Shown: in pieces, positions 10,875 through 58,000 of the stretch
Layout of the letters: the number at the start of each line of letters is the position of its first letter
Position numbering within the stretch: the first letter of the stretch is position 1
The notes under the pieces: generated by a model
What the model saw: only the letters and a program-made list of their open reading frames with translations
Database searches by the model: none
Told to the model about the DNA's origin: nothing
Assembly (NCBI RefSeq): GCF_024521635.1
Contig: NW_026250417.1
Location: 248,001-312,000, forward strand
DNA length: 64,000 nt
Origin: Tricharina praecox
Lineage: Eukaryota
Reading direction: 5' to 3'
Position numbers and translations under genes: made by a program

Positions 10875-11000
10875 CAAAAATTGCGATGCCGAAAGACCCT
10901 AAGATCATTCGCAGGGACTCGATTCTCGCAGTGCAATGAGAACCTTATCTCTGGAGCTTTGCTGATGGTTGAGCCAGCGAAGTCGCATCAAAGTAAGTAT
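10875..11000 (-). ncRNA. U1: U1 snRNA-like copy 1 (subtype B; 5' arm variant AUACUUACUUUG)
   Basis: 5' arm, AUUGCAC loop and AAUUUUUG Sm site; upstream TATAA; coordinates run from +1 to the Sm site. Confidence 0.8.
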
Positions 11001-11193
11001 GAAGAAGAAAAGAAAAGAGGAGGAAGAAGGCGCGGGGACGGGGTATTATAGTTGTTCCAGTGGGGTCGATTTTGGCCGACGGGAAGTAGCTAGCTAGGGT
11101 TTTGACCGAGTGACACGCAGTGTAGCCAAGCTAGTCAGCAGAAAACACCTTTAAAACTCCCCTTCCCCCGCCCATCATTTCCTTTTCTTCTTC

Positions 11194-11320
11194 ATACTTA
11201 CCTTGATGCGACTTTTCTGGCTCAAACAGCAGCAAAGCTCCAGAGACACCCCCTCATTGCACAGCGAGGGTAGCGTGTCTCCGCAAAAGGTCTTCGGGCC
11301 TTTCGGCGTCGCAATTTTTG
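11194..11320 (+). ncRNA. U1: U1 snRNA-like copy 2 (subtype A)
   Basis: ATACTTACCTTGATGCG...CCCTCATTGCACAGCGAGGG...GTCTTCGGGC...GCGTCGCAATTTTTG; TATA degenerate (TTTAAAA). Confidence 0.85.
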
Positions 11321-12836
11321 ATTTCTTCCTCTGCTTTGATGAGATGAAGGTGTTTTCGTTGATGGTGCTGGGCCCTCTCTCCTTAGGAGGCCGAGACGTC
11401 AAAGAAAACATGTTACATCGGTGGGGACTCCCTCTTGCCCCCAAGACAGCCTACGGGTCACGGCAATATTGCTGTCTTTCATGCTTTTTTTCTGTTTCAT
11501 CATTAAGTGCGTGCGACCTTATCTAGTCATGGCAAAGATTATGATGTACACACGCCGTTTCCTTATCCATTTTCCAACCCGACCTCGAACAGTCCGCAGC
11601 AGCCCGTGATGGCTCCTTCGCCTAGGCACCCGGAATACAAAGGAAAAAACAAAAGCTCGGACAAATTCCCCTTCCTCTCCGACCATCCTGTCTCGTCCGG
11701 AGAGGCCATAAGGGGGCGGCATTGAGTCGAACAGAAGCTGAGGCCCCCCCTCCACCACCATATCCCCATCCCTTTCCAGGCTGACAGCGTCTCGCGCTGT
11801 CATCTCCTCTAGCTATTCCTCGTGTTCCCTTTGTGCCCACTCGACAGGGCACCTCACTACTCTACTTTATCATCTTGGTAAGACAGTTGGAAGAGGCAGT
11901 GGTTCGTCAGACCTACTTACCAATACACTTCGGTACTTGGGGAGTATAAATAGAAAACAGAAGCAGGTTTTGATTGCGACCTTTACTTCGTGTGATATCC
12001 CATAGTATTGAGCGCTGAGTGAGCGCGGTGTTGGACCCGACGTGACCAAACGACTTGCTCCCTTATTCACTAGGAAGCCGGTTGCCATTCTGTCTCATTG
12101 CTCAGGGGGCAGTATTGAAAACTGTCGGATACATTCTATCTACAAGCTGCTTTTTTTTTGTTTCATCATCGTAGCATTCGACCTTATCAGATCATGGCTG
12201 TATACACTCCGGTTCCACCCCACTGTCTCCGACCGGCGACCGCTGGCCGCGAGCTCGATGTGGGTTCCCTATTGCTCTACGCCCAGCCCATCCGTAGATA
12301 GAAAGAGAGACAGAAAGTAAGAATATCTATAAGACGCCGTTCACTTATATTCCATCACTCGTCATACGGATTGCAGACGATGATGATATTTCATGATCAG
12401 CTGTCGTCACGGTTGTCTTTCCTGCTTTCGCTCAGCCTCCCTGTCTCTACCTGGTCTGCCTGAATGTTGAATGAGGTCTCTCCGGCGTAGGGAGGTTTGG
12501 AAACTCATTAGCAGCCTGCGGAACTTCGGGAATGGCAAGACGGTTGTTCAAGGTGACGATGCTAGCAGGGGGTTCTACACTCGAGTGGGTCCTTACTGTG
12601 AGTTGCATACAGTATGATGGCTATAAAATCACATCGGCTGCCCGGATATGACAGCTGACAGAGACGGGTGCAAGCCATGAAGCTGGGGAGCTTGAATATT
12701 CCTCCCCACTGCGATGTCTTGGGTTTACTCACAGTATGTACAACCCATACACCACGCCACACTCCTTCATACCATCATCCTTCGCCACCTCGGCCTCAAC
12801 TAGCGCCCAAGTAACCGACGGAAAACCAGAAGCAAA

Positions 12837-12962
12837 CAAAAATTGCGATGCCGAAAGACCCTAAGATCATTCGCAGGGACTCGATTCTCGCAGTGCAATG
12901 AGAACCTTATCCCTGGAGCATTACTGCATGTTGAGCCAGCAAAGTCACATCAAGGTAAGTAT
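12837..12962 (-). ncRNA. U1: U1 snRNA-like copy 3 (subtype B)
   Basis: All U1 motifs present; stem I has some mismatches; TATAAAA upstream. Confidence 0.8.
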
Positions 12963-13150
12963 GAAGAAGAAAAGAAGGAGGAGTGGGGAAAGGAGACGGG
13001 GTTTTATAGGTGTTCTAGGGGGTCGATTTCGCCGATAGGAAGTAGCTAGCTAGGGGTTTTAACCGAGTGACACGCAGTGTAGCCAAGCTAGCCAGCAGAA
13101 AACACCTATAAAACCCCCTTTCCCCCACCCACCATTTCCTTTTCTTCTTC

Positions 13151-13277
13151 ATACTTACCTTGATGCGACTTCGCTGGTTCAACTAGCAGCAAAGCTCCAG
13201 AGACACCCCCTCATTGCACAGCGAGAGTCGAGTGTCTCTGCGAAATATCTTCGGATGTTTCGGCGTCGCAATTTTTG
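13151..13277 (+). ncRNA. U1: U1 snRNA-like copy 4 (subtype A)
   Basis: All U1 motifs present; TATAAAA ~45 bp upstream. Confidence 0.85.
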
Positions 13278-14079
13278 ATTTCTTCTGGTTATCCGTCGGT
13301 TACTTGGGTGCTCAGTGAGGCCGAGGTGGCGAAGGATGATGATGGGATCTGCGGCGTGGTGTATGGGTTGTACACACTGTGAGTAAACCCAAGACAGCGC
13401 AGGCACTGTGAAAAGAAATACGGCAAACGTCTATAATGCTATAGTTTTTGGCACTGTGGTCTAAAATGCCATAGTTTTGAACAAAAAAGTCTGAAAACCA
13501 ACCACCGCTCAAACCCACCACCACCCACCATGTAAACCCACTGTCTCGAGCGATGGAAGAGCTGTCGGCGAGAGGAGAAAGTTGAAGAGGACTCCTGTCG
13601 GCCTGGAGTTGGCAAAGAGCCCTCGCAAAACCATCATTACTAAAACACCGTCTACTTGCCAATGCCTCTCTAGACCGGGAAGCGGGTCGACAGCGAGAAC
13701 ACACAAGGGGAGAGATGATATAGATGTTCATCGTCTATTCTGTAGACTATGAGAGAGAAAGAAGAAGAAGAAGTAGACGACGGAGAGGGCAGGCGTCTCG
13801 CTGGCCCCGCTAACGTTGATGTTCACTAAGTACTAACCACATCCGCTTCCTCCCACCGACAAATTATATCGCTGGGACCAGCCGGGGCGACGGGCAAGGG
13901 AAGCCACATGGCCCGCTCGACGAAAGCTGGGTTGGACAGTGGTGTGGAAATGGAGTGTGTAGGGGGCGGATATTGCCATGACCTGCCTTCGGAGCAAGAG
14001 GGAGTCCCCATAGACGTAACGTGTCTTCTTCGACGTCTCGGCCTCCCGAGGAGAGAGCCCAGCACCTTCAACGAAAACG

Positions 14080-14231
14080 CCTCCACCAAAGTGGAGGAAG
14101 ATATCAAAAATTGCGACGCCGAAACATCCGAAGACATTTCGCAGAGACACTCGACCCTCGCTGTGCAATGAGAGGGTGTCTCTAGAGCTTTGCTGATCTT
14201 TGAGCCAGCAAAGTCGCATCAAGGTAAGTAT
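14080..14231 (-). ncRNA. U1: U1 snRNA-like copy 5 (subtype A, intact 3' hairpin)
   Basis: All motifs plus a post-Sm hairpin CCUCCAC-UUUG-GUGGAGG (stem-loop IV equivalent); TATAAAA upstream. Confidence 0.88.
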
Positions 14232-15847
14232 GAAGAGGAAAAGAAAGAGGAGGAAGGGTGGCCGGGGACGGGGGGTTTTATAGGTGATTTTGGAGGGGTC
14301 GATTTCGCCGACGGGAAGTAGCTAGCGCGTAGTTAGGGCTTAGAACTTGAGCCACGTGCGGTTCGGTTGCTTTGTGGGTCCAACCGCCCCCACGCACGCT
14401 TTCTCACTCCAACTCTCTTCTCCTTCCTCCCAATCTCCAACATCAGCATGTGCACTCATCCACCTCAGCAGATGGTTCACCGTGCCTACCGTGGCCCTTG
14501 TTCTCCCCTCAGGTGAATTGACCCGCAGGACTGATGACTCCGAATCCTCGCGGCCGTGAGTCGTGACTGACTCTCTCCGTTTTGAGGGCATTAGGTGTCG
14601 GGAATCGCCACGTTCACGAGCCGGGAGGGTATATAATCATGGTAAAAGACAGCTGGAGGAGGCAGTGGTTCGTCAGACCCACTTATGTAGGTACACACTT
14701 AGGGGGTATAAATGGTAACAGAAACAGTTTTTGATTGGACCTGTAACCTGTATGTATACTTCGTCTCATCGTGTGATGCAGTATCCCGTGGTGTTGGATC
14801 CGAGGTGGTGGACCAACTACTTGCTCCCTATTCACTGGGAAACTGGTTGCAGTTCTGCATCGCAACATTGCGTAGGGGGTAGTATTGACACCTGTTGGAT
14901 AAGATGTATCTATCTACACCCATTTCTGCCAACCAAGATTTCGGCCTTGCAATTCCGAGCCGAGTGACAGGCTATGTCTACGAAATCGCATCGGGTGCCC
15001 TGGTACGACAGCTGACATGGACGGATGCAAGCCATGAAGTTGGGGACCTTGAATATTTCTCTACACTGCTTTGTCTTGGGTTCACTCGTAGAATGTACCA
15101 GGAACAGCCAATAAGCCGTGCCTCACCACCATTACGAATTATAAGCGCAAGGTGAGGCACCACTAACCCTTACACCCGAGTATCTACATGAAGAAAGTTA
15201 CGTCGCCACAGCCTGGCCAACTCAAAAGCCAGGGCGCGTAATGTGGAAAAAGCATGACACGCAATGGCTATTCGCAATGGACATTCGCAATGGCATACGC
15301 AACGGTCATACACAATGAGGGAAGAGAAAGCTCGGGATTTGGAAGACAGGTGTCTTTCTAGATAGCTCTGTATCTCTTGTTCGCTGTATATAAACCGTCT
15401 ATGTTGTCCGCTCTTTTTCTTTCTGAACCAAGTAGTCAGTCAATTCAATTTCTTGTTTCCCTCTCTCTCTACCTTCCATTGAGCGGCCTATTTGTGGATC
15501 GGGACGATTGGAGGGATGAGTTGTTGTTTAGGCGGGCGAACGATTGATTGATGATGGTGATGATGGTGATGATCTTGGTCTTGGTACAGATAGAAGGTAA
15601 ACAAGAGAGTCCCCCCTCCCCACCACTAGCCTGGAAACCGCTTACAAACAGATGTAACGCTCCACACCGTCCGTACGATCATACTTCCGCACCGCCCATC
15701 GACACTACATACCTCATACCTCATACAGCCAATACACCACACCACCGATCCTTCCTCTGTATAATACCATCATCCTTCGCCACCTCGGTCTCACTGAGCG
15801 CCCAAGTAACCGACGGAAAACGCCTTCATCAAAAAGAAGGAAGAAAT

Positions 15848-15975
15848 CAAAAATTGTGTTGCCGAAAGATCCGAAGATCATTCGCAGGGACTTGTGATTC
15901 TCGATGTGCAATGAGAACCTTATCCCTAGAGCTTTGCTGATTGTTGAGCCAGTAAAGTCGCATCAAGGTAAGTAT
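15848..15975 (-). ncRNA. U1: U1 snRNA-like copy 6 (subtype B)
   Basis: 5' arm, AUUGCAC loop, Sm site; TATAAAA upstream. Confidence 0.8.
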
Positions 15976-16064
15976 GAAGAAGAAAAGAAAAGAGGAGGAC
16001 GGAGGGGCGGGGAAGGGGGTTTTATAGGTGTTCTAGGGGAGTCAATTTCGCCGATTACCTACGT

Positions 16065-16412
16065 AGGGGCCTAGGGCTTGGAACTTGGAGCTTGAGAGCA
16101 GACGAGAAAGGAATCGAAGCTGGCCGGCCGACTTGCGAGCCGCGGGGTTGTCGGCTGCCAGCTTGCACAGCTGCTGTGTGTGGGACCCAGCGGAAACGAC
16201 GCCTTGGCGCGTCGTTTCAACCCGGAGCTGCGGACCTGGGTGAGACCGATGGCCAAGGAGTTGTGAACGGACTGGGGCTCGTTGAGACCAGCTCGGTTTG
16301 GAGTGTGACCGAGGGCGGAGAGGTTTGTTGTCATTCGGTTTGAGAGCGGGTCCTGTCTGAGCTGGGAGCGGGCATGGGAGATGCACGAGCGGCGAAATTT
16401 CGCCGACCTGGC
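16065..16412. repeat. ~350-bp module inside the U1 pair spacer; second copy (reverse complement) at ~51551-51890
   Basis: GGAACTTGGAGCTTGAGAGCAGACGAG...GGGAGATGCACGAGCGGCGAAATTTCGCCGACCTG matches the reverse complement of 51551-51890. Confidence 0.85.
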
Positions 16413-16802
16413 TAGACCAGATGTGGTGGGCGAAATGCTCGAGGGGGTCTTTTTTACTTTGTTGGCCGGTTGTTTGTTTTGTCATTGTCCGTCATCATCT
16501 GCGCATTCATATACTCATCTCGCCATTCAACTCGCGGGGTACTTGAGGTTCATCACCTGAAGAGCACAGGTGGCTCTTTTCTTTCATTGTCGTTTCTCTC
16601 TCTAGACAAATACAATCGGTCTTCTATATTATTAAACAAGGTTGTCTGAGGGTCATCACGTCTCCAGTGCTTCACTGCCCAAAGCACTGCCCGCTAATGC
16701 CTCCTCCATTTTGGCCGAGTGACACGTAGTGTAACCAAGCCTCCAGCAGAAAGCGCCTATAAAACCACCCCCTTCTCCGCTCACGGTTTCCTTTTCTTCT
16801 TC

Positions 16803-16928
16803 ATCTCACTGCATGCGGCTTTGCTGGCTCAAGAAGCAACGAAGCTCCAGCGGCAACACCTTCATGGCACAGCGAGGGGCGAGTGTCTCTGCGAAAGGGC
16901 TTCGGGCCTTTCGGCGTCGTAATTTTTG
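16803..16928 (+). pseudogene. U1: U1 snRNA-like copy 7, degenerate
   Basis: 5' arm replaced (ATCTCACTGCATGCGG), U1A loop AUGGCAC; Sm site and stem III retained. Confidence 0.75.
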
Positions 16929-17633
16929 ATTCTTCCTCCTTTTTGATGAAGGCGTTTTCGTTGATGGTGCTGGGCTCTCCTCAGGAGGCCGAGACTTCAA
17001 AGAAGACATGTTACATTGATGGGGACTTTCTCTTGCTCCGAAACTGTTTTTTGTTTACTGATTGATTGCATGCGACTTATCTAGATCATCGAATTATCCG
17101 CCCCGGTCATACATCCTCCCCTTTCCACGTCACTGTCCAGCTCGACTTTCATCGAGCGGCCCGATGTGGCTTCCCCTGCTTCTCCGCCCTGGCTTTTCTC
17201 GAAGATACATGTGAAGGAAATAAAGCTATGAAAAGAAAGGGAGGGAAAGTGGGAGTGGCCCCGGCTCCTCAACCTCGGCGCCCTCATTCTCCTTCTCCTC
17301 ACGCCTCCTCTCCACAATGTACCTATGCGAGGAGTTGGGTGGATTGAGTGGTATTTGGTTCGAGTATGTAGATTCGCATTGTTCAAGCGGGGCTTGGAAT
17401 CCAGCGCAAGGCCAAGCTCTCTCACATGTTATCACCCGCTCTACTCATGGTCCATCACTCCACAGCCCGATTGAATGTGATCTGCAGGGTCCGTTTTCAT
17501 CCCGCTCTTGGCAGCACGCCACAGCCCCTCCATCCACAGTTTTTCCGCGGCCATCCATCGCCACACCTCCGCACTGCAGTCTACCACTTCTCCCACGACC
17601 TCCACGACGACGACGACGCCAACGACCGCAACG

Positions 17634-18859: not shown

Positions 18860-19150
18860 ATACCACATGGCAGTAAGCAAGGGAGGGAGCCGAGAGCCCC
18901 GACACAATTTGGGGGGTGGGGGAGAAGTGTGCGGTTGGTTTCATGTGGTATCGCATTGATAGAACACCATTCTGCCTGGGCAGAGCTGAGTGAGTGAATG
19001 AGTTTGTGGTGTAATGTACACATTTGCGCGCTCCCGTCCCACACTCGCCAACAACCAACAACCAACAACCCCCCACTGCCACCCACCACCACCACCAACT
19101 GAAACCTCTACCGCATCACCGCCACTACAACCAGCACCACCGCCACATGC

Positions 19151-24125: not shown

Positions 24126-24222
24126 CCCTCCCTCCCTCCCTCCTCAGTCACCCTCCCTCCCTCAGTCACCCTCCCTCCCTCAGTCACCCTCCCTCCCTCC
24201 CTCCTCAATCACCCTCCCTCCA
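24126..24222 (+). repeat. ~18-bp minisatellite (CCCTCCCTCCCTCAGTCA)n
   Basis: 3-4 units, read directly. Confidence 0.8.
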
Positions 24223-25695: not shown

Positions 25696-25726
<31 letters not shown>

Positions 25727-28577: not shown

Positions 28578-28608
<31 letters not shown>

Positions 28609-42752: not shown

Positions 42753-43042
42753 ACGAATGTGGGATGAGGGACGAGGGACGGAGGACAGGGGGCTAGGCAG
42801 GCAGGCAATGGCATTTTCTTCAGCTGGCTCACGAGCCGAGTGGGGCTGGCTCGTATCGATCACAATCGTAACTTACATTTACATATCCACCTCCACCGCC
42901 GTCGCGAAAGAAATCCCGATCCCCGCGCTGCTGCCGCGCATGCCCCGACTACATACCAAATGTGAATACAAGGTGCAAATAGCCCACAACTCCATCTAGG
43001 GAAACGAATAGAACACCGACTACAAAGTCTCATCAGATTGCA

Positions 43043-44763: not shown

Positions 44764-46162
44764 GGCTGCGGTACTGGCTGAATAGGGATGTGTCGGTAAG
44801 GTGGTGTGGACGTGGGTTGGCGATGGAGCTTGGAGCTTGCTGAGTACTGTTCGAGTGGGTAGCCTTGGTGGGGCTTGGTGTGGGGGGAAGCCGCTCCATG
44901 TGGCTGTCGCCTAGTGTAACTGCCAAGTTCATTTTCTGTACTGGACAGGGGAGCTCACTCGCAAACACCTAAAAAATGCGAGTATCGAAACACACCATTA
45001 CTGCCTACTCAAGTGAGCAAGTCCACGTTTCCGTACATAAGTGCTTACTTGCTGAGTTGTTTGTGTAGCGAGTTTATACGAGAATACCCAGGTGGGTAGC
45101 AATCCTGTACATTGACAAGTTTTGGAGCTGTGATCAGCTTACAACGCCCGAATTGATACCCAATTGTAGTATAATTGATAAAAGTAAACCAACAAAAACT
45201 CCCTAAGTACTTGCTTTAAACACCAGCAAATAAACTTATCCTAGGTGTTTCCGGACATTATGGTTGCCGTGGGAAGTCGTGGTTCCGGTAGGCGGTAGTC
45301 CCGAGACCTATGGCTCGACCGATCACGACTATCTGAGAGGGTGGGGCGGGATTGTATACCGAGCTCTACGTGCCTCCTACATCAGCTTCCAGAGAGAAAA
45401 TGACACCACAGGACTTGACGGCGTTATGGACCAACGGGAGCGAAAGGGTCGGACGCACGTCGGTCCCGTCATCAGAGTACGGACGAGCAAAACGACCCTC
45501 TCCTACGGACTAAAGCATGAGGAATAGGCGGAGAAGGGGTCATTGTATTGATGGGTGAATTTAGATGCTTGGTTGCATACGAGAGGGCCAGGCCGTTCGA
45601 GATGAGGTGCATGCATCATGGGGCTGAAGTCACTGCTCATCTCGTAAAGTAGGGTGTATGTAGAGTAGACTGACGAACGTTCGACAGCTTAGGGTTGAAG
45701 GATGGCAGTGTTTGTGCTCTAGACACGTAGTCTAATTCAAGTTTGCCGCGCTGGGTACTCAGGAACGATGACTGGCGGTCGAGAGATCACTGCTCTGATG
45801 AATCCCGGAGGATGAGAGGGCTGCAAAAGGCTCAAGTGAAGTTCTTCATCACCACGATCGAGATGGTATTGCCGTTCGGATTCGTCGGGTTGGGCTCACA
45901 GCGTGTGTGTGGGGTCTCAGCATCAGACACCACCCATCGCGATACGAACGCTTGAAAAACTTGAGCTTCGCTGTCTCTGCCCCGTTGGCGCGTGCGGAAA
46001 GACTAGAGTACATACTCTAGATGACCTGAGCGAGAACTTCATCCGTCTTCAGAGCAAAAGGAAGTCCCCATCGATGTAACGTGTCTTCTTCGACGTCTCA
46101 GCCTCCTGTGGAGAGCCCAGCACCATCAACGAAAACGCCTTCATCAAAAAGGAGGAATAAAT

Positions 46163-46288
46163 CAAAAATTGCGACGCCGAAAGGCCCGAAGACCTTTCGC
46201 GGAGACACGCTACCCTCGCTGTGCAATGGGGGTGTTGCCTCCGGAGCTCGCTGATTGTTGAGCCAGCAAGTCGCATCAAGGTAAGTAT
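46163..46288 (-). ncRNA. U1: U1 snRNA-like copy 8 (solo, subtype A)
   Basis: All U1 motifs; its own upstream TATATAAA and a different upstream sequence; family 3' tail extends to ~46050. Confidence 0.85.
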
Positions 46289-46630
46289 GAAGGAGAAAAG
46301 AAGAAGAGAGTAAGAGACGGGAGGAAGGCACTGTTTATATAGGTGGAAGTCTTGGCACTATACCGGATCGGAGCTAGCGTCATGTCACCAGCAGTCACCC
46401 GCCCTTAGAATTCGAGAGCTAGCGCTCCCAGCCATAAATACTACCAATTTCACGTACAGCTTTAGAATTCATGAATCACCGTAGCAAGCACGCTCTTCTC
46501 AGAGTAAAATTGATTCCCATACATTTATGTAATATTACCGCCGTTTAAAGGAAATCAAGGCATCTCGCCTAAGTATCATGCACACATACCGGTAATCTGG
46601 TTCTCCATAGAGACTCCATGTGTCCTTTCT

Positions 46631-47696
46631 CTACCGCCTATCGCGATACTCCACATCCTTATGTCTCCTGTCTACACGTGCACGGTCTCTCGACTTTGAC
46701 CGTGACCTGCGCCGTCTGTTGTCATCGCGTCGGCGGTCCCGATGATCGTTACCGCCCCGTCCTCTGTCTCCGCCCTCGTCCATCCTGCGGTTTCTATCAT
46801 CTCTTCTCTCACCCGCCCCTTCTTCCCTATCCCTATCCCTTCGGCCTCCTCGAGCTGGAGGCGCACCTCCTCGCTCCCGATCCAATCCCTTCATAACTCT
46901 CTCAGCCGCGCTCTCGGCTATTCTCTCCCTTGGTTGTGCTTGTACCTGTGGGGCGTGCACTGAACCAACAAACTCCACTTTATCCCTTCCAGACTCCAGC
47001 TGCACCTTCTCCCTCGCCTCGCCAATCATGGCCTGGTTATATGCCAATGCCTCGACAAAAGCGTCCTTAGGGAACTTTGTTGGATCCCACAGATCAGACG
47101 ATAGATTGGTTGCGTATTGATCCTTTCCGGCAAAGCCTACAAACTCGGTCAACTTCTCCAAAAGATTCGGATTTCGCAATGACGACGAGCGAAGTAGCTT
47201 CTCGTTGAAATGCACGCCTTTCGTCTTGAGGTCCCGGAAGTGTGCGAATTTGGCCGCGAGTGGTGCCGGTGGCGACCCTGGTGGTGATGGGGGAATGGTG
47301 GGGATAGAGGGAGGCAGCGTGAGCGTGTGGATGAGGTTTCGCGAAGCCGTGTAAGGTGAAAGCGGTGGGCCTTGGTCTTCCTCGTCTTCGTCCTCGTCCG
47401 ACGGTGGTCGTTGCGGACCTACGATCGGGGCATCGTCTGTCGATGGTTGCTCATGTTCTGGCGACGCCTGAAAAGAACCGGGTGAATGACGACTGGAAGC
47501 GCCATCTATGGTCGTAGTTATTGGACCGGGGGAGAGGTTCTGTGACTACGAGTCCAGTATGTTAGTTGACAGCACGGCGGAACGGCTACGTAGGGTGCAC
47601 CTGTGGGGGAGTTGTTTGATAGGGCTGCTGTGGCACTGAAGCGGAAGTTGAAGGAGCTTCATCCTCGCTATCGCTACCATATTCGACGAGACCCAT
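46631..47696 (-). CDS. HCNGP/SAP30BP-like protein
   Basis: MGLVEYGSDSEDE, IPPSPPGSPP, KGVHFNEKLLRSSSLRNPNLLEKL...QYATNL..LWDP; one intron. Confidence 0.88.
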
Positions 47697-47903
47697 TGCG
47701 CGGTTGCTGAGTGCTAGTTACTGGTGTCGGGTTTGTCGTGTGCAACGGCGCGTCATCGCCGCGCTGGAGAGCTCCCGCAGTTGAGGTGATTTACCCTGTC
47801 GTGTTGCGGCTAAGCTTCGAGAGAACGTTCATGCATCACCCAGAGCATCAACAGTGCAACCAACACCTCTCCAATCCATCCTTCACATCACCATCCCATC
47901 AAA

Positions 47904-48876
47904 ATGTCGCTGTTTGCATCTCCATCGTATGCTCCTAGCGCTCACGCAGCTAGCGGTCCCCAGCAGCACGCCTTCAACCCGTTCGTTCCCCCCGCTTCCA
48001 CAGCAGGCAGCACTACGGCGGAGCTCTACTGACCACCCTCTAGCTACACCAATAACGGCGGTTCGATAATCGGCATCGCGGGAGATGATTTCCTCGTCAT
48101 GGCTGGCGATACGCGACACACCTCCGGCTACAGCATCAACTCGCGGACGGAAAAGAAGGTGTTCAGGCTCGGCGAAGACTCCAACTTGGTGCTTGCTACT
48201 GTGGGCTTCGGAGCGGACGCAAAGAACATCGCCGAGACGATGACGAGAGCTGTCGATGTTAGCCTTCAACCACCGCCGCAGTCAGACGGAAGCTGTTATG
48301 GGATATGTGCTGATACGCAGAGGCAACAGGACTTCAGATTCCAGCACAACCTGCGGAACATGTCGGTTACGGCGGCGGCGCAATTCCTTTTCACCGTCCT
48401 CTACGGCAACCGCTTCTTCCCAAAGTACGCCCACTGCATTCTCGGAGGTCTCGACAAGGATGGCAAGGCGAAGCTATATTCCTACGACCCTGTTGGATCG
48501 TATTCCAAGGAAGGAGAGAGGCGCGCTGCGGCGGGCGCGGCCAGTTCGTTGATCGTGCCGTTCTTGGATAATCAGGTAATGCCTCACTCGTGACTGGTCA
48601 TCGCGGCAATGAGGGGATTATTACCCTCATGGCCTGATTCCGGTTGACGCTAACAACCCGGTTCAGGTCGAGTTCAAGAACCAGTACGTGCCGGGCACTG
48701 CCTTCACCCAAGAGAGGCCGGTGGAGTATCTCTCAAGGGAGAAAGTCAAGATGTTGGTCAAGGATGCGTTTACGAGTGCTACGGAGAGACACATCGAGGT
48801 CGGAGATGGCCTGCAGCTGGTCACCATCTCAAAGGATGGCTACCACGAGGAAGTCTTTGATTTGAAGCGTGATTAG
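47904..48876 (+). CDS. PRE7: 20S proteasome subunit beta-6 (PSMB1)
   Basis: FNP|YTNNGGS..IAGDDF..AGDTR, LYGNRFFP, YSYDPVGSY, PFLDNQ|VEFKNQ, DAFTSATERHIEVGDGL...LKRD. Confidence 0.97.
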
Positions 48877-49553
48877 ACCAAGGTTAATCTAGATGACCTC
48901 AATGAAGTGCCTTTGATGAAGCCTGAACAGGCATGCAGTAAGATTTTGGCAGCCTGAAGATAGAACGTATCACTCAAAACTCATCCATCGTGGTCACTCA
49001 CCATGCATATCGCTGGTGGGTTTCGCCGTTGTGTCTCATGCGCGACTGGCGCCGCTCTAGATCGTCCGCGCTAGTAGCCCTGTAGATTCCCAGGCGGCCT
49101 TGCCTACTGCCCATAAGCACTTCATCAATCAGTCACGTAGATACATGAATACATTTGTGGGTAAGCCCGTGGACACACATACAGTACTCACTTCATGTAA
49201 AGTGCGCGAGCAGAAGGGATAGTTCTGAGCAAGAACAAAAGCCCACGCAAACTTATATGGTGTGCTTAACCGCCAGAAAATCCCCGAAATGGAGGAGGAG
49301 GAGGAGGAGACATCCATCCTACAATAGTACCTGACTACATCTGGCACAGAGCTGTGAGAGTGATCCTACTCCTGGAGCAGGTCGATAACTATAGCTGCCC
49401 ACAACAGCAGCAGCAGCAACAACACCATCCCATCCCACCCCCCCACCGCCCGCCATCTTCCCCAAGAATTTCCTTCGAAGCCTCGACTTCCCAAAGGAGT
49501 ATCCAAGTATCGACGCAGATCCCCAACTCCCCATCGTTTCCGTGGCGAGCAAT

Positions 49554-49680
49554 CAAAAATTGTAACGCCGAAACATCCAAAGAGATTTCGCAGAGACACG
49601 CGACCCTCGCTGTGCAATGAGGGGGTGTCTCTGGAGCTCTGCTGCTGTTTGAGCCAGCAAAATCACGTCAAGGTAAGTAT
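49554..49680 (-). ncRNA. U1: U1 snRNA-like copy 9 (subtype A, truncated just after the Sm site)
   Basis: 5' arm, AUUGCAC loop, Sm site; half of the spacer present upstream. Confidence 0.75.
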
Positions 49681-50069
49681 GAAGAAGAAAAGGAAACTGG
49701 GTGGGGGGAAGGGGCGTTTTATAGGTGTTCTGGCTGGAGGGCTTGGCGGCACAACGTGTCACTCGGTCAAGACGGAGGGGGCACTAGCGGGTAGTGCTTG
49801 AAAGACAGCTTTTGCAGCAGGCAGCGGCACAGCAACGGGCCATGGTGGTAGAGCTTTCTCTCGACCTGCGAAGCTGGCAGGAAGGTCGGGAAGTTGGTGG
49901 TCGCCATGGTCTAGTAAGACAGCAATATTGCCATGATCTGTCTTTGGAGCAAGAGGGAACACCCATTCCCCCTCTATGTAGCGTGTTTTCCTCGACGTCT
50001 CAGCCTCCTGTGGAAAGCCCAGCAGCATCAACGAAAACGCATTCACCAATTCAAAGCGGAGGAAGAAAT

Positions 50070-50196
50070 CAAAAATTGCGACGCCGAAACATCCGAAGAC
50101 ATTTCGCAGAGACACTCAACCCTCGCTGTGCAATGAGGGGGTGTCTCTGGAGCTTTGCTGATTGTTGAGCCAGCAAAGTCGCATCAAGGTAAGTAT
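50070..50196 (-). ncRNA. U1: U1 snRNA-like copy 10 (subtype A)
   Basis: All motifs; clean stems I-III; TATAAAA upstream. Confidence 0.88.
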
Positions 50197-50385
50197 GAAG
50201 AAGAAAAGAAAATTTAGTGGGGGGAAGGGACGTTTTATAGGAGTTCTAGGGGGTCGATTTCGCCGACGGAAAGTAGCTACATAGCTAGGGTTTTTGACCG
50301 AGTGACACGCAGTGTCGCCAAGCTAGCCAGCAGCTAACGCCTATAAAACCCCCCTTCCCCCCACCCACCTTTCCTTTTCTTCTTC

Positions 50386-50511
50386 ATACTTACCTTGATG
50401 CGACTTTGCTGGCTCAATAATCAGCAAAGCTCCAGGGATAAGGTTCTCATTGCACAGCGAGAATCGAGTCCCTGCGAATGATCTTAGGGTCTTTCGGCAT
50501 CGCAATTTTTG
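50386..50511 (+). ncRNA. U1: U1 snRNA-like copy 11 (subtype B)
   Basis: ATACTTACCTTGATGC...CAGGGATAAGGTTCTCATTGCACAGCGAGAATCGAGTCCCTG...GCATCGCAATTTTTG; TATAAAA at 50342. Confidence 0.88.
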
Positions 50512-50641
50512 TTTGCTTCTGCGTTTTCCGTCGGTCACTTGGGCGCTCAGTGAGGCCGAGGTGGCGAAGGATGATGATAGGATCTACGGCGTGGTGTATG
50601 GGTTGTTCACACTGTGAGTAAACCCTAGACAGCGCAAGCAC

Positions 50642-51200
50642 ACCGCCCGGACGCTCGGTGCGGATGGTGTCATTACCTTTCAAGACCCAGACTCGGAAGC
50701 ATCTCTTCGGGTGCTGCCCCGAATGACTGAGCCGGTACAAGATCCTGTGGGCAGAGGTTCGGAAGGGGACAGGGAGGGCCGAGGCTCGCTTCAAGATCCG
50801 AGACCTCTTCGCAGACGCGCGGTGCAACCAGGTCATCCTAGATTTCCTCTCATCCAATGATGTGGGCAGACGGGTCTTAGAGGTCGGTGAGGAAGATGCT
50901 GCAAGTGAGGTGTCCGAGTGAGAGCTTAAGGAGATATGTGGAGATGAAGCGAGAAGAGGAGGAGGAGGGCACTGAGGTTGAGGAGTCGGTGTCACTCCCG
51001 CTGTTCCTCTTCACACCCTTCTTCGTGGCATCTCCTGATGAAAAGTCAGGGTGCGGCAAGGCGGGGTGAGGAGCGGGCTTTCGTTTCCTAGCTTTATTTC
51101 CTTCACATGCACCTATTTTTGGGAAAAGCCGGGGCGGAGAGCAGGGAAAGCCACATCGAACCGCTCAACGAAAGCTGGGTTGGACAGTGGGGTAGAAACG
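50642..51200 (+). mobile_element. 5'-truncated, degenerate LINE (Tad-like) ORF2 C-terminus plus 3'UTR
   Basis: Across a frameshift and a stop it reads DARCGWCHY.FKTQTRKHLFGCCPE*...ILWAEVRKGTGRAEARFKIRDLFADARCNQVILDFLSSNDVGRRV, the CCHC zinc-knuckle end typical of fungal LINE ORF2. Confidence 0.8.
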
Positions 51201-51358
51201 GGAGGTGTATGCCCGGGGCGGATATTGCCATGACCCAACTTCGGAGCACGAGGGAGTCCCCATCGATGTACGTAACATGTCTTCTTCGAAGTCTCGGCCT
51301 CCTGAGGAGAGCCCAGCACCATCAACGAAAACGCCTTCATCAAAAAGGAGGAAGAAGC

Positions 51359-51482
51359 CAAAAATTATGACGCCGAAAGACCCTAAGACCATTCGCAGAG
51401 ACTAGATTCTCGATGTCTAACGAGAACCTTATACCTGAAGCTTTGCTGCTCGTTGAGCCAGCAAAGTCGCATGCATATAGAT
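51359..51482 (-). pseudogene. U1: U1 snRNA-like copy 12, degenerate (subtype B)
   Basis: 5' arm replaced (ATCTATATGCATGCGAC); U1A loop mutated (GUUAGAC); Sm site kept. Confidence 0.72.
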
Positions 51483-51992
51483 GGTGAAGAAGAAAAGGAA
51501 AAGAGGAGGAAGGGCGGGCGGGGACGGGGGATTTTATAGGTGTAGGCTTCCAGGTCGGCGAGATTTCGCCGCTCGTGCATCTCCCATGCCCGCTGCCAGC
51601 TCAGACAGAACCCGCTCTCAAACCGAATGACAACAACCCTCTCCGCCCACGGTCACACCCCGGACCGAGCTGGTCTCAACGAGTCCCACTCTGTTCACAA
51701 CTCCTTGGCCATCGGTCTCACCTGGGTCCGCAGCTCAGAGTTGAAACGACGCGCCAAGGCGTCGTTTCTGCTGGGTCCCACAGCAGCTATGCACAATCCC
51801 GCCGCTCGCAAGTCGGCCGGCCAGCTTCGATTCCTGTCTCGTCTGCTCTCGAGCTCCAAGTTCCAAGTGGCAAGTCCTAAGCCCCTATCTAGCTAGCTAC
51901 CTACTTTCTGTCGGCCAAAATCGACCCCCCCGGAACAGCTATAAAACCCCCCATCCCCGCCCGTCCTTCCTCCTCTTTTCCTTTTCTTCTTC

Positions 51993-52119
51993 ATACTTAC
52001 CTTGATGCGACTTTGCTGGCTCAAACAGCAGCAAAGCTCCAGAGACACCCCCTCATTGCACAGCGAGGGAAGCGTGTCTCTGCGAAATGTCTTCGGATGT
52101 TTCGGCGTCGCAATTTTTG
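51993..52119 (+). ncRNA. U1: U1 snRNA-like copy 13 (subtype A)
   Basis: All motifs; TATAAAA upstream. Confidence 0.87.
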
Positions 52120-52899
52120 ATTTCTTCCTCCGCTTTGAATTGGTGAAAGCGTTTTCGTTGATGGTGCTGGGCTCTCTCTTCTCGGGAGGCCGAGACGTCG
52201 AAGAAAACATGCCACACATCGATGGGGACACTCCCTCTTACTCTTTCCACCCGGCTGTCCCTGACCGCTGGCCGCGAGCTCGATGCCGGCTCCCTATTGC
52301 TCTCCGCCCAGCTCTCCCCGAGCGTCAACCTTCCCTGCTCGCTCCCCGCTCAACTCAAAAGAATGAATGAACGAAAGTATTCGTCAGTCAAACTCTCGCC
52401 CCGTCCAACTTCCTGTGAGCTCGATTACGAAATCTAGTTCCTCGTCCCTGCCGCCGTGTTCTCTATATACTCCACCGGCCGGCCGTCTCCTCGCCCGTCC
52501 TGTATCCTCTTTCTCGCCCTGGCTCTTACTGCGTCCCAGTCCATCGAGCTGCCTGTAGCCTGGGTGACCCGGCTGGGAGGGATGGGAAGGAAGAGGGGAC
52601 GAAGGCTCTCGGCGGCCTGTCTCCTTTCTTCCGCTCTCGCCACTCTTTCTACCGCTGCGGCTCTTGCTCCTTCTCTATGTGAGGACCGCCGTCGCCGCTG
52701 CTATGTCCGAGGTTTGGCTCGGGGTTTCTGGTCCGTCTTCTGGTCCCAGGGGGGGTACCCTTCTGCGACCCACGTCCGTGCTGTCGAGGAAACCGAGGAC
52801 AGCCGTAGTACAGTATTGGTTCGCGAGGAGATCCTCGATCTTGAATCTCCCCCCCCCCCCCCTCCCTTCCCCCACCCATCGTTTCCTTTCTTCTTCATA

Positions 52900-55766
52900 C
52901 CCTTGTAAAACAAGGGGGAGTTTTTTAAATAGTGGAGCGACTGTTGTGCCATGATTTTTTTTTCAAACCCGTAGGAAAAGTAAATACCACATCGTGATAG
53001 TTGGGAATTATACACATGTCAAATTATTGACCTATAAAAGCCACTCAAAACATTGTACATTCCGTGTTAGATTTACAGACGTGTTGCAAGTTTTTAACGG
53101 AGGGAGTGGATATACAGTTCACAGACTTTTCCCGTGAAAATTGGAAGCCGTAGTACAAGTGATCCCGATTATAGAGAGTTAAATGACCGGCAATTAGACA
53201 TATTTAAAGAATTACTTCGAGTTTTTTTTCAATATGTTGCAAATCTCTCCTATGTAGTTAAAATAAAGCGTTAAAGTGCATTAAAACGTTGCAGCATCGT
53301 TTTCTTGGAATTTTTGAACCATTTTTGAACCATTTTTGAACTGTTGAAACTTGGGAGCAAGAGTGCAACGTGTGAATATCAGAGATGAATCGGGACGCTT
53401 AGCCTTGAAACTAGGCTCGGGTTTCCTCGCTTATGCAGTATTTTTTCACATTGGTCTTGAAGCACTAAGCACATATGGATTTATATTCTACTATATATTA
53501 CTACCTACGGGGCCAACAGGCAGTATCCAGAGCGGGCCGGCAGGCTGGCACATACTGCTGCTAGCCCTGCTGCCACTGACCCTCGACTTGCTGGATCCAT
53601 TGTGGTGGAGAGATGGAGGGGCTGTCGGCGGGAGGAATGGTTGCGCCGAGATGAGGGGTTGTGTCGAGGGGAGGGTTGCGGCGAGGATATAGTTGTGGCT
53701 AGAAAAGATATAAGAGAGAGAAGCTCTTAACGAGAGTAGGAGTTGCGGCGGGAGGAGGGGTTGCGCCGAGAGGAAGGTTGCGCCGAGAGGGGGGGTTGTG
53801 CCGAGAGGAGGGGTTGTGCCGAGAGGAGGGTTGCGGCGAGGATATAGTTGCGGCTAGAAAAGCTATAAGAGAGAGAAGCTATGAGCGAGAGTAGGAGCTA
53901 CGGCGGGAGGAGGAGTTACGCCGAGGGGAAGGGAGAATAGAGTTGTTGCTAGAAAAGCTGTTTGAGAGAGAAGCTATCAGCGAGGGTAGACTCTAGAATT
54001 GCGGCCAGAAGTTGCGGCAAGAATAGAGTTGCGCGGAGAGTACATAGCAGTTGTGGCGAGGGTAGAGATGCAGCAAAGCTAGCTATAAAAGAGAGAAACT
54101 ATCAGCAGGAGTAGAATGGCAGCGGGAGAAGTAGCTATATGAGTAAGGAGATATCAGCGGGAGTAGCAGTAGCAGTAAGGTGGAGGGTGGGGTGGGGGGG
54201 GATCACAGAGGGGCCAGCCGGGCGAGCAGCAGTAGTGAGTGGGGGATATTCACAGCGCAGCCAGTACTGTATACACGTTAGCACGAGGGCAAATTCGAGG
54301 GCAAATCCAGTACTGTAACAACGGTAGCGAGGGGGCATTTCTAGCGAGAGTGCATTTCGTAGGCGATTCCAGCGCTGTATCAGCGGCGGGTCCAGCAGGG
54401 CATGTAGTAGTGGGGAGAGGGAAGGGCAATCACCATGTATTGCGCCGAGAGGAGGGGTTGTGCGGGGAGGAGAGGAGAATAGAGTTGCACCGAAAGTAGA
54501 CTTGCGGCGAGAAAAGCTATGAGAGAGAGAAGCTATCAGCGAGGGTAGATATGCGGCCAGAATAGAGTTGCGCCGAGAGTAGCAGTTGCGGCGGGGGTAG
54601 GAGCTATATCATATGAGCTATCAGTAAGAGTAGTAGTAGCAGTTGCGGCGGGAGTAGCAGTAGCAGGAGGGAGTAGGAGCTATATGAGAAATGAGCTATC
54701 AGTGGGAGTAGCAGTAGTAGTTGCGGCGCGAGTAGGAGCTATAAGACAGAGGAAGATTAGCGAGAGTAGTAGTTGCAGCACAGAAGGGAGAATAGCAGTT
54801 GTGGCGAGAGTAGAGCCTTGAGAGAAGTGCTATCAGCAGCAGTAGTAGTAGGAGCTATATGAGAGAAGTGCTATTAGCGAAAGTAGTTGCGGCGGGAGGG
54901 GGATAGCAGTTGCGGAGGAAGTAGTAGTTTCAGTGGGAGTAGCAGTTGCGGGGGGGGGGGAATAGCAGTTGCGGTGGGGGAGGGAGTTGCGGTAAGGGGG
55001 GTAATAGCAGTTGCGGTGGGGGGGAATAGCTGGGAGTGGGAATAGCTGGGAGTGGGAATAGCTGGAGGTGGGAATAGCAGTTACGGGGGGGGAGGAGTTG
55101 CGGGGGGAGGAGGAGATGTGGGGGAGGAGGAGTTGTGGGAAAAGAAGAAGAAGAAAAAGAAGAAGAGGCGGACGGCTAAGAGAGCATACGACCCCGCCAT
55201 GCCCGCCATGCCCGCCAACGTTGGTGCCGTCTACTAACCACATTCGTCTTCTCCCACCGACAGGAGTCCTTCACCTCCTCCTGTTGCCGACACCTCCTAC
55301 CACAGCTCCTGAGCCATTTCACGAATTGACTAAGTCATTCCTAGAGTCATCTCGCGGATTGACTCAGTCATTCCTGTTATTACTCCCTCCCGTGGCAGCT
55401 CGCTCATCGCTCCCCACACAGGGAAACAGTGGAAAAATGCCAAGACAACGCTTAAGTGAGCACCAACGATATATCTCGAACTTGTGTTTTTATATTTCCA
55501 CCAGTTCCTGTTTACTTAAGCGTTAGATCAACGTATGACAAATTCTCACATTTTCTGGCTTTTTGCCGAGTTTACAATTTAAAATGGGTGTACTGTCTAT
55601 CATCATATTATTTCCGCATCGTTTTACGTAGCTCACGTTATTCTAGATGCAATAGTTGCGGAATAGTTGGGCAATACCGCGGGGCCGTTTGTGAAATCTA
55701 ATGATCGCGTAACCATTTCCCAACCCACCGCTCACGTTTATAAAACCCCCCTTTTTTTTACAAGGG
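52900..55766. mobile_element. 2.87-kb TIR DNA transposon (TA TSD) inserted in U1 copy 14
   Basis: TIRs CCCTTGTAAAA... / ...TTTTACAAGGG; TA duplicated (52898-99, 55767-68); removing it restores TTCTTCATACTTACCTTG; no intact transposase seen. Confidence 0.9.
53640..55140 (+). repeat. Purine-rich degenerate minisatellite inside the TIR element
   Basis: Recurrent GAGAGAGAAGCTATCAGCGAG and TAGCAGTTGCGG units. Confidence 0.75.
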
Positions 55767-55917
55767 TACTTACCTTGATGCGACTTTGCTGGCTCAACGA
55801 TCAGTAAAGCTCTAGAGACACTCCCTCATTGCACAGCGAGGGTCAAGTGTCGCTGCGAAATGTCTTCGGATGTTTCGGCGGCGCAATTTTTGATATCTTC
55901 CTCCACTTTGGTGGAGG
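55767..55917 (+). ncRNA. U1: U1 snRNA-like copy 14 (subtype A), interrupted at nt 2-3 by the transposon
   Basis: TACTTACCTTG...ATTGCAC...AATTTTTG plus the CCTCCACTTTGGTGGAGG hairpin; its upstream T-tract is left behind at ~52860-52899. Confidence 0.82.
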
Positions 55918-55994
55918 CGTTTTCGTTGATGGCGCTGGGCTCTCTCCTCGGGAGGCCGAGGCGTCGAAGAAAACGTGTCACATCGGTGGGGAAG

Positions 55995-56390
55995 GGTCAC
56001 GCTCTCTTTCATGGCATATCCTGATGAAGCGGCAGGGGGCGAGGCGGGGTGACGAGCGGACTGTTATTTCCTAGCTTTATGTATTTCTTTGATGCGCTCT
56101 ATCTCTATCGCCGGGACCGGTTGGGGCGGCGGGCAAGGGAAGCCACATCGGGCCGCTCGACGAAAGCCGGGTTGGACAGTGGCGCACGCCCTCTTTCATG
56201 GCATCTCCTGATGAAGCGGCAGGGGGCGGAGCGGGGCGGGGTGAGGAGCGGACTGTTATCTCCTAACTTTATTTCTTTGGTGCGCTCTATCTCTATCACT
56301 GGGACAGGCCGGGGCGGCAGGCAAGGGAACCCACATCGGGCCGCTCGACGAAAGCCGGGTTGGACAGTGGCGTGGAAACGGAGTGTGTAG
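55995..56390 (+). repeat. Two tandem ~185-bp LINE 3'UTR-like fragments
   Basis: CACGC..CTCTTTCATGGCAT.TCCTGATGAAGCGGCAGGGG...CGAAAGCCGGGTTGGACAGTGGCG occurs twice and matches 51010-51195. Confidence 0.75.
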
Positions 56391-56537
56391 GGGCGGATAT
56401 TGCCATGACCCGTCTCCGGAGCAAGAGGAGTCCCCATTCCCCATCGATGTAACATGCCTTCTTCGACATCTCAGCCTCCCGATGAGAGAGAGCCCAGCAC
56501 CATAAACGAAAACCTTCATCAAAGGGGAGGAAGAAAT

Positions 56538-56664
56538 CAAAAATTGCGACGCCGAAACATCCGAAGACATTTCGCAAAGACATGCTTCCCTCGCTGTGCA
56601 ATGAGGGGGTGTCTCTGGAGCTTTGCTGCGGTTTGAGCCAGCAAAGTCGCATCAAGGTAAGTAT
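56538..56664 (-). ncRNA. U1: U1 snRNA-like copy 15 (subtype A)
   Basis: All motifs; TATA degenerate (TACAAAA). Confidence 0.82.
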
Positions 56665-56859
56665 GAAGAAGAAAAGGAAACGGTAGGTGGGGTGGGGGAA
56701 AGGAGCGTTTTGTAGGTGATTTGGTGGGCCGATTTCGCCGAAGGAAAGTAGCTAGGTAGCTAGGGTTTTTGACCGAGTGACAGGCAGTGCCGCCAAGCTA
56801 GCCGGCAGACAACACCTAAAAAAACCCCCTTCCCCCCACCCAGTTTTCTTTTCTTCTTC

Positions 56860-56985
56860 ATACTTACCTTGATGCGACTTGCTGGCCCCACAATCAGCGA
56901 GCTCCGGAGGCAATACTCTCATTGCACAGCGAGGGCAGCGTGTCTCTGTGAAAGGTCTTCGGGCCTTTTGGCGTCGCAATTTTTG
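56860..56985 (+). ncRNA. U1: U1 snRNA-like copy 16 (subtype A)
   Basis: All motifs; TATA degenerate (TAAAAAAA). Confidence 0.8.
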
Positions 56986-57256
56986 ATTTCTTCCTTTCTT
57001 ATGAAGGCGTTTTCGTTGATGGTGCTGGGCTTTTCGAAGGAGGCCGAGATGTCGAAGAAAACGGCATGAAGGATTGCGGCGTGGTGTATGGGTGTTGTAC
57101 ACAATGTGAGTAAACCCAAGACAGCGCAAGCAGAGTGTAAAGCAATATTCATGGTCCCCAACTTCATGGCTTGCATCCATCCCGTCAGCTGTCGTATCAG
57201 GACTCCCGGTGCGACCTTGTACGTAGCCACCATATGTACCGTAGCTTACAGTAAAG

Positions 57257-57470
57257 ACGCCGACGAGCGGTACAGCCAGGGGGTAGTTCCTAGATCCTAG
57301 ATTTCCTCTCATCCACCGATGTGGGCAGTTGGACCATGGAGGTCGCTGAGGAAGATGCAGCATGTGAGGTGTCCGGGTGGGAGCTCAGGGAGCGGGAAGA
57401 GAGGGAGGCGGAGCTGAGGCGAGAAGAGGAGGGGTCACGCCCGCTGTTCCTCCTCACGCCCTCTTTCATA
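57257..57470 (+). mobile_element. LINE ORF2 C-terminal fragment
   Basis: ADERYSQG..ILDFLSSTDVG...EEDAACEVSGWELREREE; homologous to 50810-51025. Confidence 0.75.
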
Positions 57471-57558
57471 CATAACGTGTCTTCCTCGACGTCTCGGCCT
57501 CCCGAGGAGAGAGAGCCCAGCAGCATCAACGAAAACTTCACCAAAGCGGGTAAGAAAT

Positions 57559-57685
57559 CAAAAATTGCGACGCCGAAAGGCCCTAAGACCTTTCGCAGAG
57601 ACACTCGACCCTCGCTGTGCAATGAGGGGGTGTCTCTGAAGCTTTACTGCTGTTTGAGCCAGCAAAGTCGCATCAAGGTAAGTAT
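57559..57685 (-). ncRNA. U1: U1 snRNA-like copy 17 (subtype A)
   Basis: All motifs; TATAAAA upstream. Confidence 0.85.
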
Positions 57686-57874
57686 GAAGAAGAAAAGGAA
57701 ACGATGGGTGGGAGAAAGGGGCGTTTTATAGGTGATTTTGGTGGGGTCTATTTCGCCGACGGAAAGTAGCTAGCTAGGGTTTTCGACCGAGTGACACCCA
57801 GTGTCGCCGAGCTAGCCAGCAGGAAACACCTATAAAATCCCCCTTCCGCCATCCACTGTTTCCTTTTCTTCTTT

Positions 57875-58000
57875 ATACTTACCTTGATGCGACTTTGCTG
57901 ACTCAAACAACAGTAAAGCTCTAGGAATAAGGTTCTCATTGCACAGCGAGAACCGAGTCTCTGCGAATGATCTTAGGGTCTTTCGGCATCGCAATTTTTG
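57875..58000 (+). ncRNA. U1: U1 snRNA-like copy 18 (subtype B)
   Basis: All motifs; TATAAAA at 57831. Confidence 0.85.

Follow-up and report, generated by a model that had tools for sequence, protein, structure and literature searches.

Eighteen U1 snRNA-like genes in two groups within a 64-kb stretch of the Tricharina praecox genome

U1 genes at the locus

The DNA analyzed here is a 64-kb stretch from Tricharina praecox (contig NW_026250417.1, positions 248,001 to 312,000 of the forward strand; "the window" always means this full stretch), in which a dispersed repeat had been interpreted, from its letters, as a family of 18 genes resembling U1 small nuclear RNA (snRNA), the small RNA that marks intron starts. 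A search of the whole window with the Rfam model RF00003 in E-value mode returned 18 full-length U1 matches, numbered c01–c18, whose alignments span model positions 1–166 and take in the 5′ splice-site arm, helix H, stem-loops I–III, the AUUGCAC loop and the Sm site. Sixteen of these copies score between 34.6 and 62.1 bits (E 5.4e-13 to 4.5e-5), and the weakest matches are c12 at 25.2 bits (E 0.023) and c07 at 24.2 bits (E 0.045). A profile hidden Markov model (HMM) built from the 18 copies recovers exactly those 18 and no extra U1 fragment in the window at E ≤ 10, so that the count of 18 given in the sequence-only reading is borne out by both searches. The sequence at the RNA start, ATACTTACCTTG, occurs 16 times in the window with at most one mismatch (14 occurrences are exact), compared with 0.17 expected, and none of 100 shuffles reached 16. 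No other snRNA was detected in the window by Rfam at E ≤ 1, and no tRNA by ARAGORN.

The copies fall into two groups, seven at 10842–16955 and eleven at 46134–58032, separated by ~29 kb that contain long open reading frames (ORFs) and are without U1 copies. They are listed below together with two of the promoter regions and one example of the 3′ hairpin; T1 and T2 are two types of U1 body, tails A and B two types of 3′ flank, and A3 is an alignment of the spacers between paired genes, all described in the following sections.

10842–11000, minus strand: c01, T2 body with a flank resembling tail B; C9 changed to U in the 5′ arm; left member of a head-to-head pair (RF00003 51.7 bits, E 5.4e-10)
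11001–11193, no strand assigned: putative bidirectional promoter common to c01 and c02, with TATA-like boxes facing both ways (alignment A3 of five spacers, 86% mean column identity)
11194–11353, plus strand: c02, T1 body, tail A (RF00003 38.7 bits, E 2.9e-6)
12806–12962, minus strand: c03, T2, tail B; pairs with c04 (RF00003 61.9 bits, E 6.1e-13)
13151–13309, plus strand: c04, mosaic of T1-like stem-loop II and tail B (RF00003 47.7 bits; alignment; tree)
14079–14231, minus strand: c05, T1, tail A with a small, perfect 3′ hairpin; stands alone (RF00003 53.9 bits)
15822–15975, minus strand: c06, T2 body, small hairpin and tail B (RF00003 50.9 bits)
16801–16955, plus strand: c07, degenerate, likely a pseudogene; Sm site kept (RF00003 24.2 bits, E 0.045)
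46083–46136, minus strand: tail A hairpin, an example lying just 3′ of the U1 body (conserved in 11 window copies and in the related loci L001 and L007; predicted folds)
46134–46288, minus strand: c08, ancestral-type copy adjoining the HCNGP gene (RF00003 47.3 bits; synteny with the related loci L001, L007 and L008; tree support 97/94; overlap with a contig of run X3)
49533–49680, minus strand: c09, T1 body with its own 3′ flank; single (RF00003 57.2 bits)
50041–50196, minus strand: c10, T1, tail A; pairs with c11 (RF00003 51.6 bits)
50197–50385, no strand assigned: putative bidirectional promoter common to c10 and c11 (alignment A3)
50386–50543, plus strand: c11, T2, tail B; top Rfam score of the window (RF00003 62.1 bits, E 5.4e-13)
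51331–51484, minus strand: c12, degenerate, likely a pseudogene (RF00003 25.2 bits, E 0.023)
51993–52150, plus strand: c13, T1, tail A (RF00003 51.7 bits)
55766–55918, plus strand: c14, T1, tail A; starts with G, and a deletion upstream has left its TATA at −27 (RF00003 39.2 bits)
56533–56664, minus strand: c15, T1, tail A; pairs with c16 (RF00003 43.0 bits)
56860–57009, plus strand: c16, near the ancestral c08 type, with the loop of stem-loop I altered (RF00003 34.6 bits; tree)
57537–57685, minus strand: c17, T1, tail A; pairs with c18 (RF00003 48.1 bits)
57875–58032, plus strand: c18, T2, tail B (RF00003 48.7 bits)

Conserved fold and motifs

Folding an alignment of all 18 copies (A1) with RNAalifold gave a cloverleaf with a four-way junction, made up of helix H and stem-loops I, II and III and comprising 35 pairs. 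Standard pairs occupy 96.7% of 628 cells compared with 93.6 ± 0.5 in shuffled alignments, and cells in which both sides have changed number 28 compared with 9.8 ± 2.9 (in each case 0 of 500 shuffles reached the observed value), these statistics being computed on a structure derived from the same 18 sequences. Sliding the structure by 1–3 columns left just 38–47% of cells paired. Compensatory changes were found in 6 of the 35 pairs.

The 5′ arm AUACUUACCU, complementary to the 5′ splice site, is exact in 14 of 18 copies, carries one change in c01 and in c14, and is lost in c07 and c12. An 8-nt Sm site, AAUUUUUG (DNA AATTTTTG), follows helix H at +117 to +121 in all 18, and the U1A-type loop ATTGCAC of stem-loop II is present in every copy except c07 and c12. 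The loop of stem-loop I, GCUCAAnnAn, aligns to GAUCAaGAAG of the RF00003 model and would thus be of the U1-70K type. Every element that had been named from the sequence, namely helix H, the GCUCAAnnAn loop of stem I, AUUGCAC, a UUCG-type stem III and AAUUUUUG, is present in A1, and the U1 identity proposed there holds, given 18 matches to RF00003 in E-value mode and the conserved cloverleaf. By sequence and structure, the repeat is confirmed as U1 snRNA.

Mean pairwise identity among the copies is 0.83 at +1 to +130, 0.92 in the Sm site, 0.76 in the TATA block and 0.77 at −20 to −1, with 0.48–0.57 in the remaining upstream stretches; the functional parts are the best-kept parts of the copies. 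Copies c07 and c12, which keep the Sm site but neither the 5′ arm nor the AUUGCAC loop, are likely pseudogenes. The other 16 copies look able to make U1 RNA, because fold, arm, loop, Sm site, TATA box and 3′ hairpin are kept. In c18, a short GCTT repeat, GCTTGCTTGCTTGCTT, stands just 3′ of the Sm site (window 58000–58020), and the tail is longer than in the other tail B copies.

Promoter and 3′ flank

The shared unit extends from about +1 to +135 in all copies, and most also share an upstream promoter block (to about −60 or −100) and, downstream, flanking sequence to about +210 to +280; the conserved unit is consequently longer than the ~126 nt first proposed for it. A promoter-like TATA block lies upstream of all 18, and the element reads exactly TATAAA in 14. 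Its position, put at ~45 bp upstream in the sequence-only reading, is −43 to −56 in 17 copies and −27 in c14; c14 retains the TATAAAACCCCCC block, brought nearer to the gene by an upstream deletion. The TATA element is followed by a pyrimidine-rich leader with the consensus TTTCCTTTTCTTCTTC and then by the RNA start.

In 11 copies the 3′ flank is of the tail A type, in which a small hairpin precedes a long one, GTTTTCGTTGATGGTGCTGGGCTCTC...GGGAGGCCGAGACGTCGAAGAAGAC; the long one is near-identical in the relatives' loci L001 and L007, so that a 3′ hairpin is far from limited to copies 5 and 14, where it had been noticed before. Tail B is found in c03, c04, c06, c11 and c18, and with one difference in c01; according to predicted folds it too forms a long hairpin, in another register than tail A. 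Single-sequence fold z-scores of the 3′ hairpins are modest (−0.7 to −2.6), and RNAalifold applied to all 3′ flanks jointly returned 4 pairs only, with loose coordinates and two tail types that pair in different registers. Because the joint fold gave so few pairs, it is the single-sequence folds and the sequence conservation that carry the hairpin. This hairpin is a candidate signal for 3′-end processing or termination.

Body types and gene arrangement

Two main body types are distinguished by stem-loop II, which reads ACCCCCTC...GAGGGT in T1 and TAAGGTTCTC...GAGAAT in T2, where the changes in stem-loops II and III are compensated; a third body type, that of c08, emerges from the alignment and the tree. 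As judged from these sequences, the family would have at least two structural isoforms, T1 and T2, set apart by stem-loops II and III and by the 3′ flank. Mosaic copies (c04, with a T1-like body and tail B, and c06) suggest exchange between copies.

Ten genes form five tight head-to-head pairs (c01/c02, c03/c04, c10/c11, c15/c16 and c17/c18) with start sites 188–195 bp apart, and c06/c07 and c12/c13 form looser ones. The spacers of the tight pairs (n = 5, alignment A3) share 86% mean column identity and have the same absolute orientation in all five. Since T1 and T2 genes often stand head to head on one putative bidirectional promoter, they would be made together. Self-BLAST delimited a duplicated pair unit of ~550–900 bp, with 72–85% identity between units, and the spacers between units are mostly unique sequence. 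A homogenized tandem array shaped by concerted evolution was rejected, as units are only 72–85% alike, in mixed orientation and irregularly spaced at 0.2–3.6 kb. Substitutions in seven chosen unit pairs amount to 380 transitions and 314 transversions; with this spectrum and a G+C content of ~50% in the arrays, repeat-induced point mutation (RIP) is ruled out as the cause of divergence. A 121-aa ORF that starts inside c13 has no match in the protein collection searched.

RNA over the locus

RNA data consisted of assembled contigs from two runs, X3 and X4, over 43000–60000; both are presumed to be RNA and include spliced contigs of neighboring genes. One X3 contig (559 nt, depth 11.5) covers 46016–46272, starting inside c08, and continues across a 65-nt minus-strand intron to 45652, in the direction of the TUG-UBL gene (43606–44622). 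Contig depth in X3 and X4 is zero over c10 and c16–c18, among others, which weighs neither way, since repeats interrupt contigs and short RNAs drop out. The depth at 56041–56607 stems from short matches of contigs mostly placed elsewhere and was not counted for c15.

In the middle of the second group, the stretch 53475–55054 is transcribed, with X3 and X4 contig depths of 44–143 and, at 54266–54434, a joint resembling a minus-strand intron. It is rich in short tandem repeats with periods of 16–18, 53, 78 and 155 bp and holds only low-complexity ORFs, with no Pfam match.

The locus in related fungi

The HCNGP-domain protein encoded beside c08 (46631–47545) matches an NCBI protein of the Pezizomycete Tricharina praecox at 100% identity; the next matches belong to further Pezizomycete genera, among them Sphaerosporella, Wilcoxina and Geopyxis. 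Scanning metagenome contigs with a pattern yielded 15 loci, six with one U1 each and nine chance hits. Three of the loci, L001, L007 and L008, align to the region of the second group: L008 to window positions 43034–44764, 46079–47803 (U1 and HCNGP) and 47832–48923, L007 to 46079–47803, 47832–48923 and 61535–62920, and L001 to 45908–47671. Identity to the window is 76–84% across the TUG-UBL, U1/HCNGP, proteasome-subunit and HlyIII genes. Each of the three carries a single U1, the counterpart of c08, beside the same neighbor genes. In a tree of ~290 columns, midpoint-rooted for drawing only, c08 groups with the L007 and L001 genes (support 97/94), and a split supported at 96/98 sets 16 window copies against c08, c16 and the relatives. 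From its sequence and its synteny with the relatives' single U1, c08 is taken to be the ancestral copy.

From the proteasome-subunit gene to the stretch before the HlyIII gene, L007 spans 5.5 kb without any U1 and the window 11.4 kb with ten. Because the matching interval of L007 holds no U1, at least the second group except c08 is absent from that fungus. The interval itself is completely different between the two fungi, and in L007 it contains, at 7667–8377 on the minus strand, an ORF with an NPHP3_N domain (NACHT/NLR-type; E 4e-6).

Three further loci (L002, L004 and L013) carry a second, more distant fungal U1 type, in which stem-loop I differs and the T-rich 3′ flank retains TTTTCGTTGGTG. 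Each of these loci has a single copy of it, also the one for which 12.8 kb of a 102-kb contig were examined.

Discussion

We consider it likely that the window holds a lineage-specific multigene family of real U1 genes, duplicated at the DNA level and kept by selection. The family would have started from the ancestral c08 gene beside the HCNGP gene, as found in related fungi, and the other copies would stem from recurrent duplication at the DNA level, in which a U1 gene was copied along with its promoter and 3′ flank and the duplicated piece was often a head-to-head pair on a common 190-bp bidirectional TATA promoter. The copies would then have diverged to 72–85% identity without homogenization, while selection preserved, besides the fold of U1, its 5′ splice-site arm, U1A loop, Sm site, TATA box and 3′-flank hairpin, and c07 and c12 would have decayed to pseudogenes in a birth-and-death pattern. 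Transcription by RNA polymerase II from the TATA promoter, processing at the 3′ hairpin and assembly into small nuclear ribonucleoproteins (snRNPs) may be presumed. Retention of promoter and 3′ flank indicates that the genes were copied as DNA and not via RNA. That contigs of X1 and X2, two runs of soil metagenomes, match parts of the array at 95–100% identity speaks against an artefact of assembly; summed X1 depth over the array is higher but is not a copy number.

Several points weigh against this interpretation. None of the copies reaches the Rfam gathering score of 69.5 bits, the best standing at 62.1; single U1 genes on the six metagenome contigs of related fungi score equally low (49.3–52.5 bits with RF00003), and a sub-threshold score is therefore typical of the lineage and no sign of decay. 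The compensatory changes go back to a few events that the subtypes inherited, so that they speak for constraint on the T1, T2 and c08-type bodies and not on every copy, and gene conversion could preserve motifs without selection on each copy. The comparison with the relatives' locus covers the second group and not the first (10.8–17 kb), and "local cluster" describes the 64-kb window only. As for expression, mature U1 is beyond what the assembled contigs of the two runs can show, and the X3 contig could be either c08 read-through or a long 5′ leader or upstream start of the next gene (TUG-UBL).

The strongest alternative is that c08, and perhaps a few other copies, make U1 while the rest are DNA-duplicated pseudogenes whose intact look reflects youth or repair by gene conversion. 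Two copies are visibly decayed (c07 and c12), several others have changes at important sites (C9U in c01, A1G and a displaced TATA in c14, the loop of stem-loop I in c16), the mosaics suggest gene conversion, and c08 is the sole U1 body under a listed RNA contig piece. The identity of 72–85% and the ordinary substitution spectrum mark the copies as old, yet the Sm site is kept in 18 of 18 and the 12-nt 5′ arm in 14 of 18, the TATA block, the block at −20 to −1 and the 3′ hairpin exceed their surroundings in conservation, and the differences between T1 and T2 are paired and compensating. A family composed mostly of dead copies is, in our view, unlikely.

Capture and amplification of U1 as a mobile cassette, as the sequence-only reading had it, would mean that a transposon or other mobile DNA took up the U1 gene with its promoter and spread copies of it. 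Such spread would agree with the occurrence of irregularly spaced copies on both strands, in two groups with 29 kb between them and mostly unique spacers, with the variability of the ten-copy interval between species, and with a head-to-head pair that amounts to an inverted repeat with ~270-bp arms. These arms, however, are two U1 types ~77% alike and hence do not look like working terminal repeats, and the five tight pairs all lie in one absolute orientation. The copies have no common termini, homology ending at different points from copy to copy on both sides; the longest ORF in either array, according to the ORF lists, is at most 203 aa, and no transposase, reverse transcriptase or helicase gene appears there; and no transposon family is found among the Pfam matches of the scanned ORFs, some small ORFs having been left unscanned. 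All 18 copies lie in the two groups, with no extra fragments in the window, and promoters and flanks are kept. Mobile spread is thus quite improbable, and with DNA copying, variable ends and no transposon genes, local duplication of a gene or gene pair is preferred. Confinement to the locus had been named as the mark of a local gene cluster; within the window, the presence of all copies in two groups points to such a cluster.

Origin via RNA, as U1 retropseudogenes or a family akin to short interspersed elements (SINEs) derived from U1, has a precedent in mammals, where U1 retropseudogenes are common, and would suit the BLAST homology of c14 to other copies, which begins at +1, but it is contradicted by the conserved promoters (all 18 copies have a TATA block upstream, 17 of them at −43 to −56), by homology reaching 200–280 nt past +1 into non-transcribed or processed flank, and by the lack of any visible A-rich tail in the inspected 3′ flanks, and we give it hardly any credence.

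U1 multigene families and variants are well known in animals and plants, whereas fungi are treated as having one or few U1 genes. According to the portions of the cited papers used here, mammals have ~200 U1 copies and variants, Drosophila has 5, and the snRNAs of S. cerevisiae are single-copy (PMC10645366). Aspergillus fumigatus has two U1 loci, U1-1 and U1-2, one base apart and on different chromosomes, with a mature U1 of ~130 nt (PMC2377427), and in Podospora anserina 14 snRNA genes of all kinds are annotated (PMC2441463). As far as these portions go, the copy number in the window is indeed unusual for an ascomycete, as had been supposed, with one gene in S. cerevisiae, two in A. fumigatus and one on each of the relatives' contigs. 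No report of fungal U1 expansion was found among the literature matches listed, from a search with supplements and most subscription journals outside its reach.

The true human U1 genes are near-identical and lie in large repeat units, with promoters made of proximal and distal sequence elements (PSE/DSE) and an Integrator 3′ box. The window copies, unlike these, are 72–85% alike, irregularly placed, often head to head and TATA-bearing, with a 3′ hairpin common to related fungi. What the human RNU1 (1p36) and variant U1 (1q12-21) loci share with the window, on the excerpts at hand, is a cluster of many U1 genes on a single chromosome, with a promoter and a 3′ signal for each gene and with variants among them; human variant U1 genes are described there as transcribed and assembled (PMC3561869, PMC10870369). 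Drosophila melanogaster likewise has a small multigene family with variants, and in the part of the source consulted the function of each copy is open there (PMC10645366); it differs in being an animal with fewer copies (5), and that part of the source makes no mention of head-to-head pairs. Like the fungus studied here, A. fumigatus belongs to the filamentous ascomycetes and has more than one U1 locus, with a short RNA (~130 nt) and the same stem-loop layout, but the partial source describes two near-identical loci, unlike the 18 copies and three body types found within 64 kb. Closest are the U1 genes of L001, L007 and L008, which resemble c08 in sequence type, TATA block, 3′ hairpin and neighboring genes; they differ from the window in having one copy per locus, and T1, T2 and the head-to-head pairs are absent from the DNA examined. 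What is new here is a known kind of gene family in a group of organisms in which it was not expected.

It is possible, and we put this forward tentatively, that the fungus makes several distinct U1 snRNAs, of the c08 type, T1 and T2, as a recent fungal counterpart of the variant U1 snRNPs of animals. If this is so, its close single-U1 relatives would provide natural controls for the roles of extra or variant U1, and the questions would be those of splice-site choice and of the protection of transcripts from premature 3′-end formation. The locus also gives a first view of a candidate Pezizomycete snRNA promoter and 3′-end signal, consisting of a TATA element at about −45, a bidirectional core and a 3′ hairpin. 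If the extra genes are silent, they would represent merely a local burst of gene duplication, of modest interest. Within 64 kb there are at least 16 U1 genes that look intact, belonging to two or three structural types, compared with one in the syntenic DNA of relatives, and if the extra genes are expressed, they would offer a compact system for asking why cells multiply and diversify U1.

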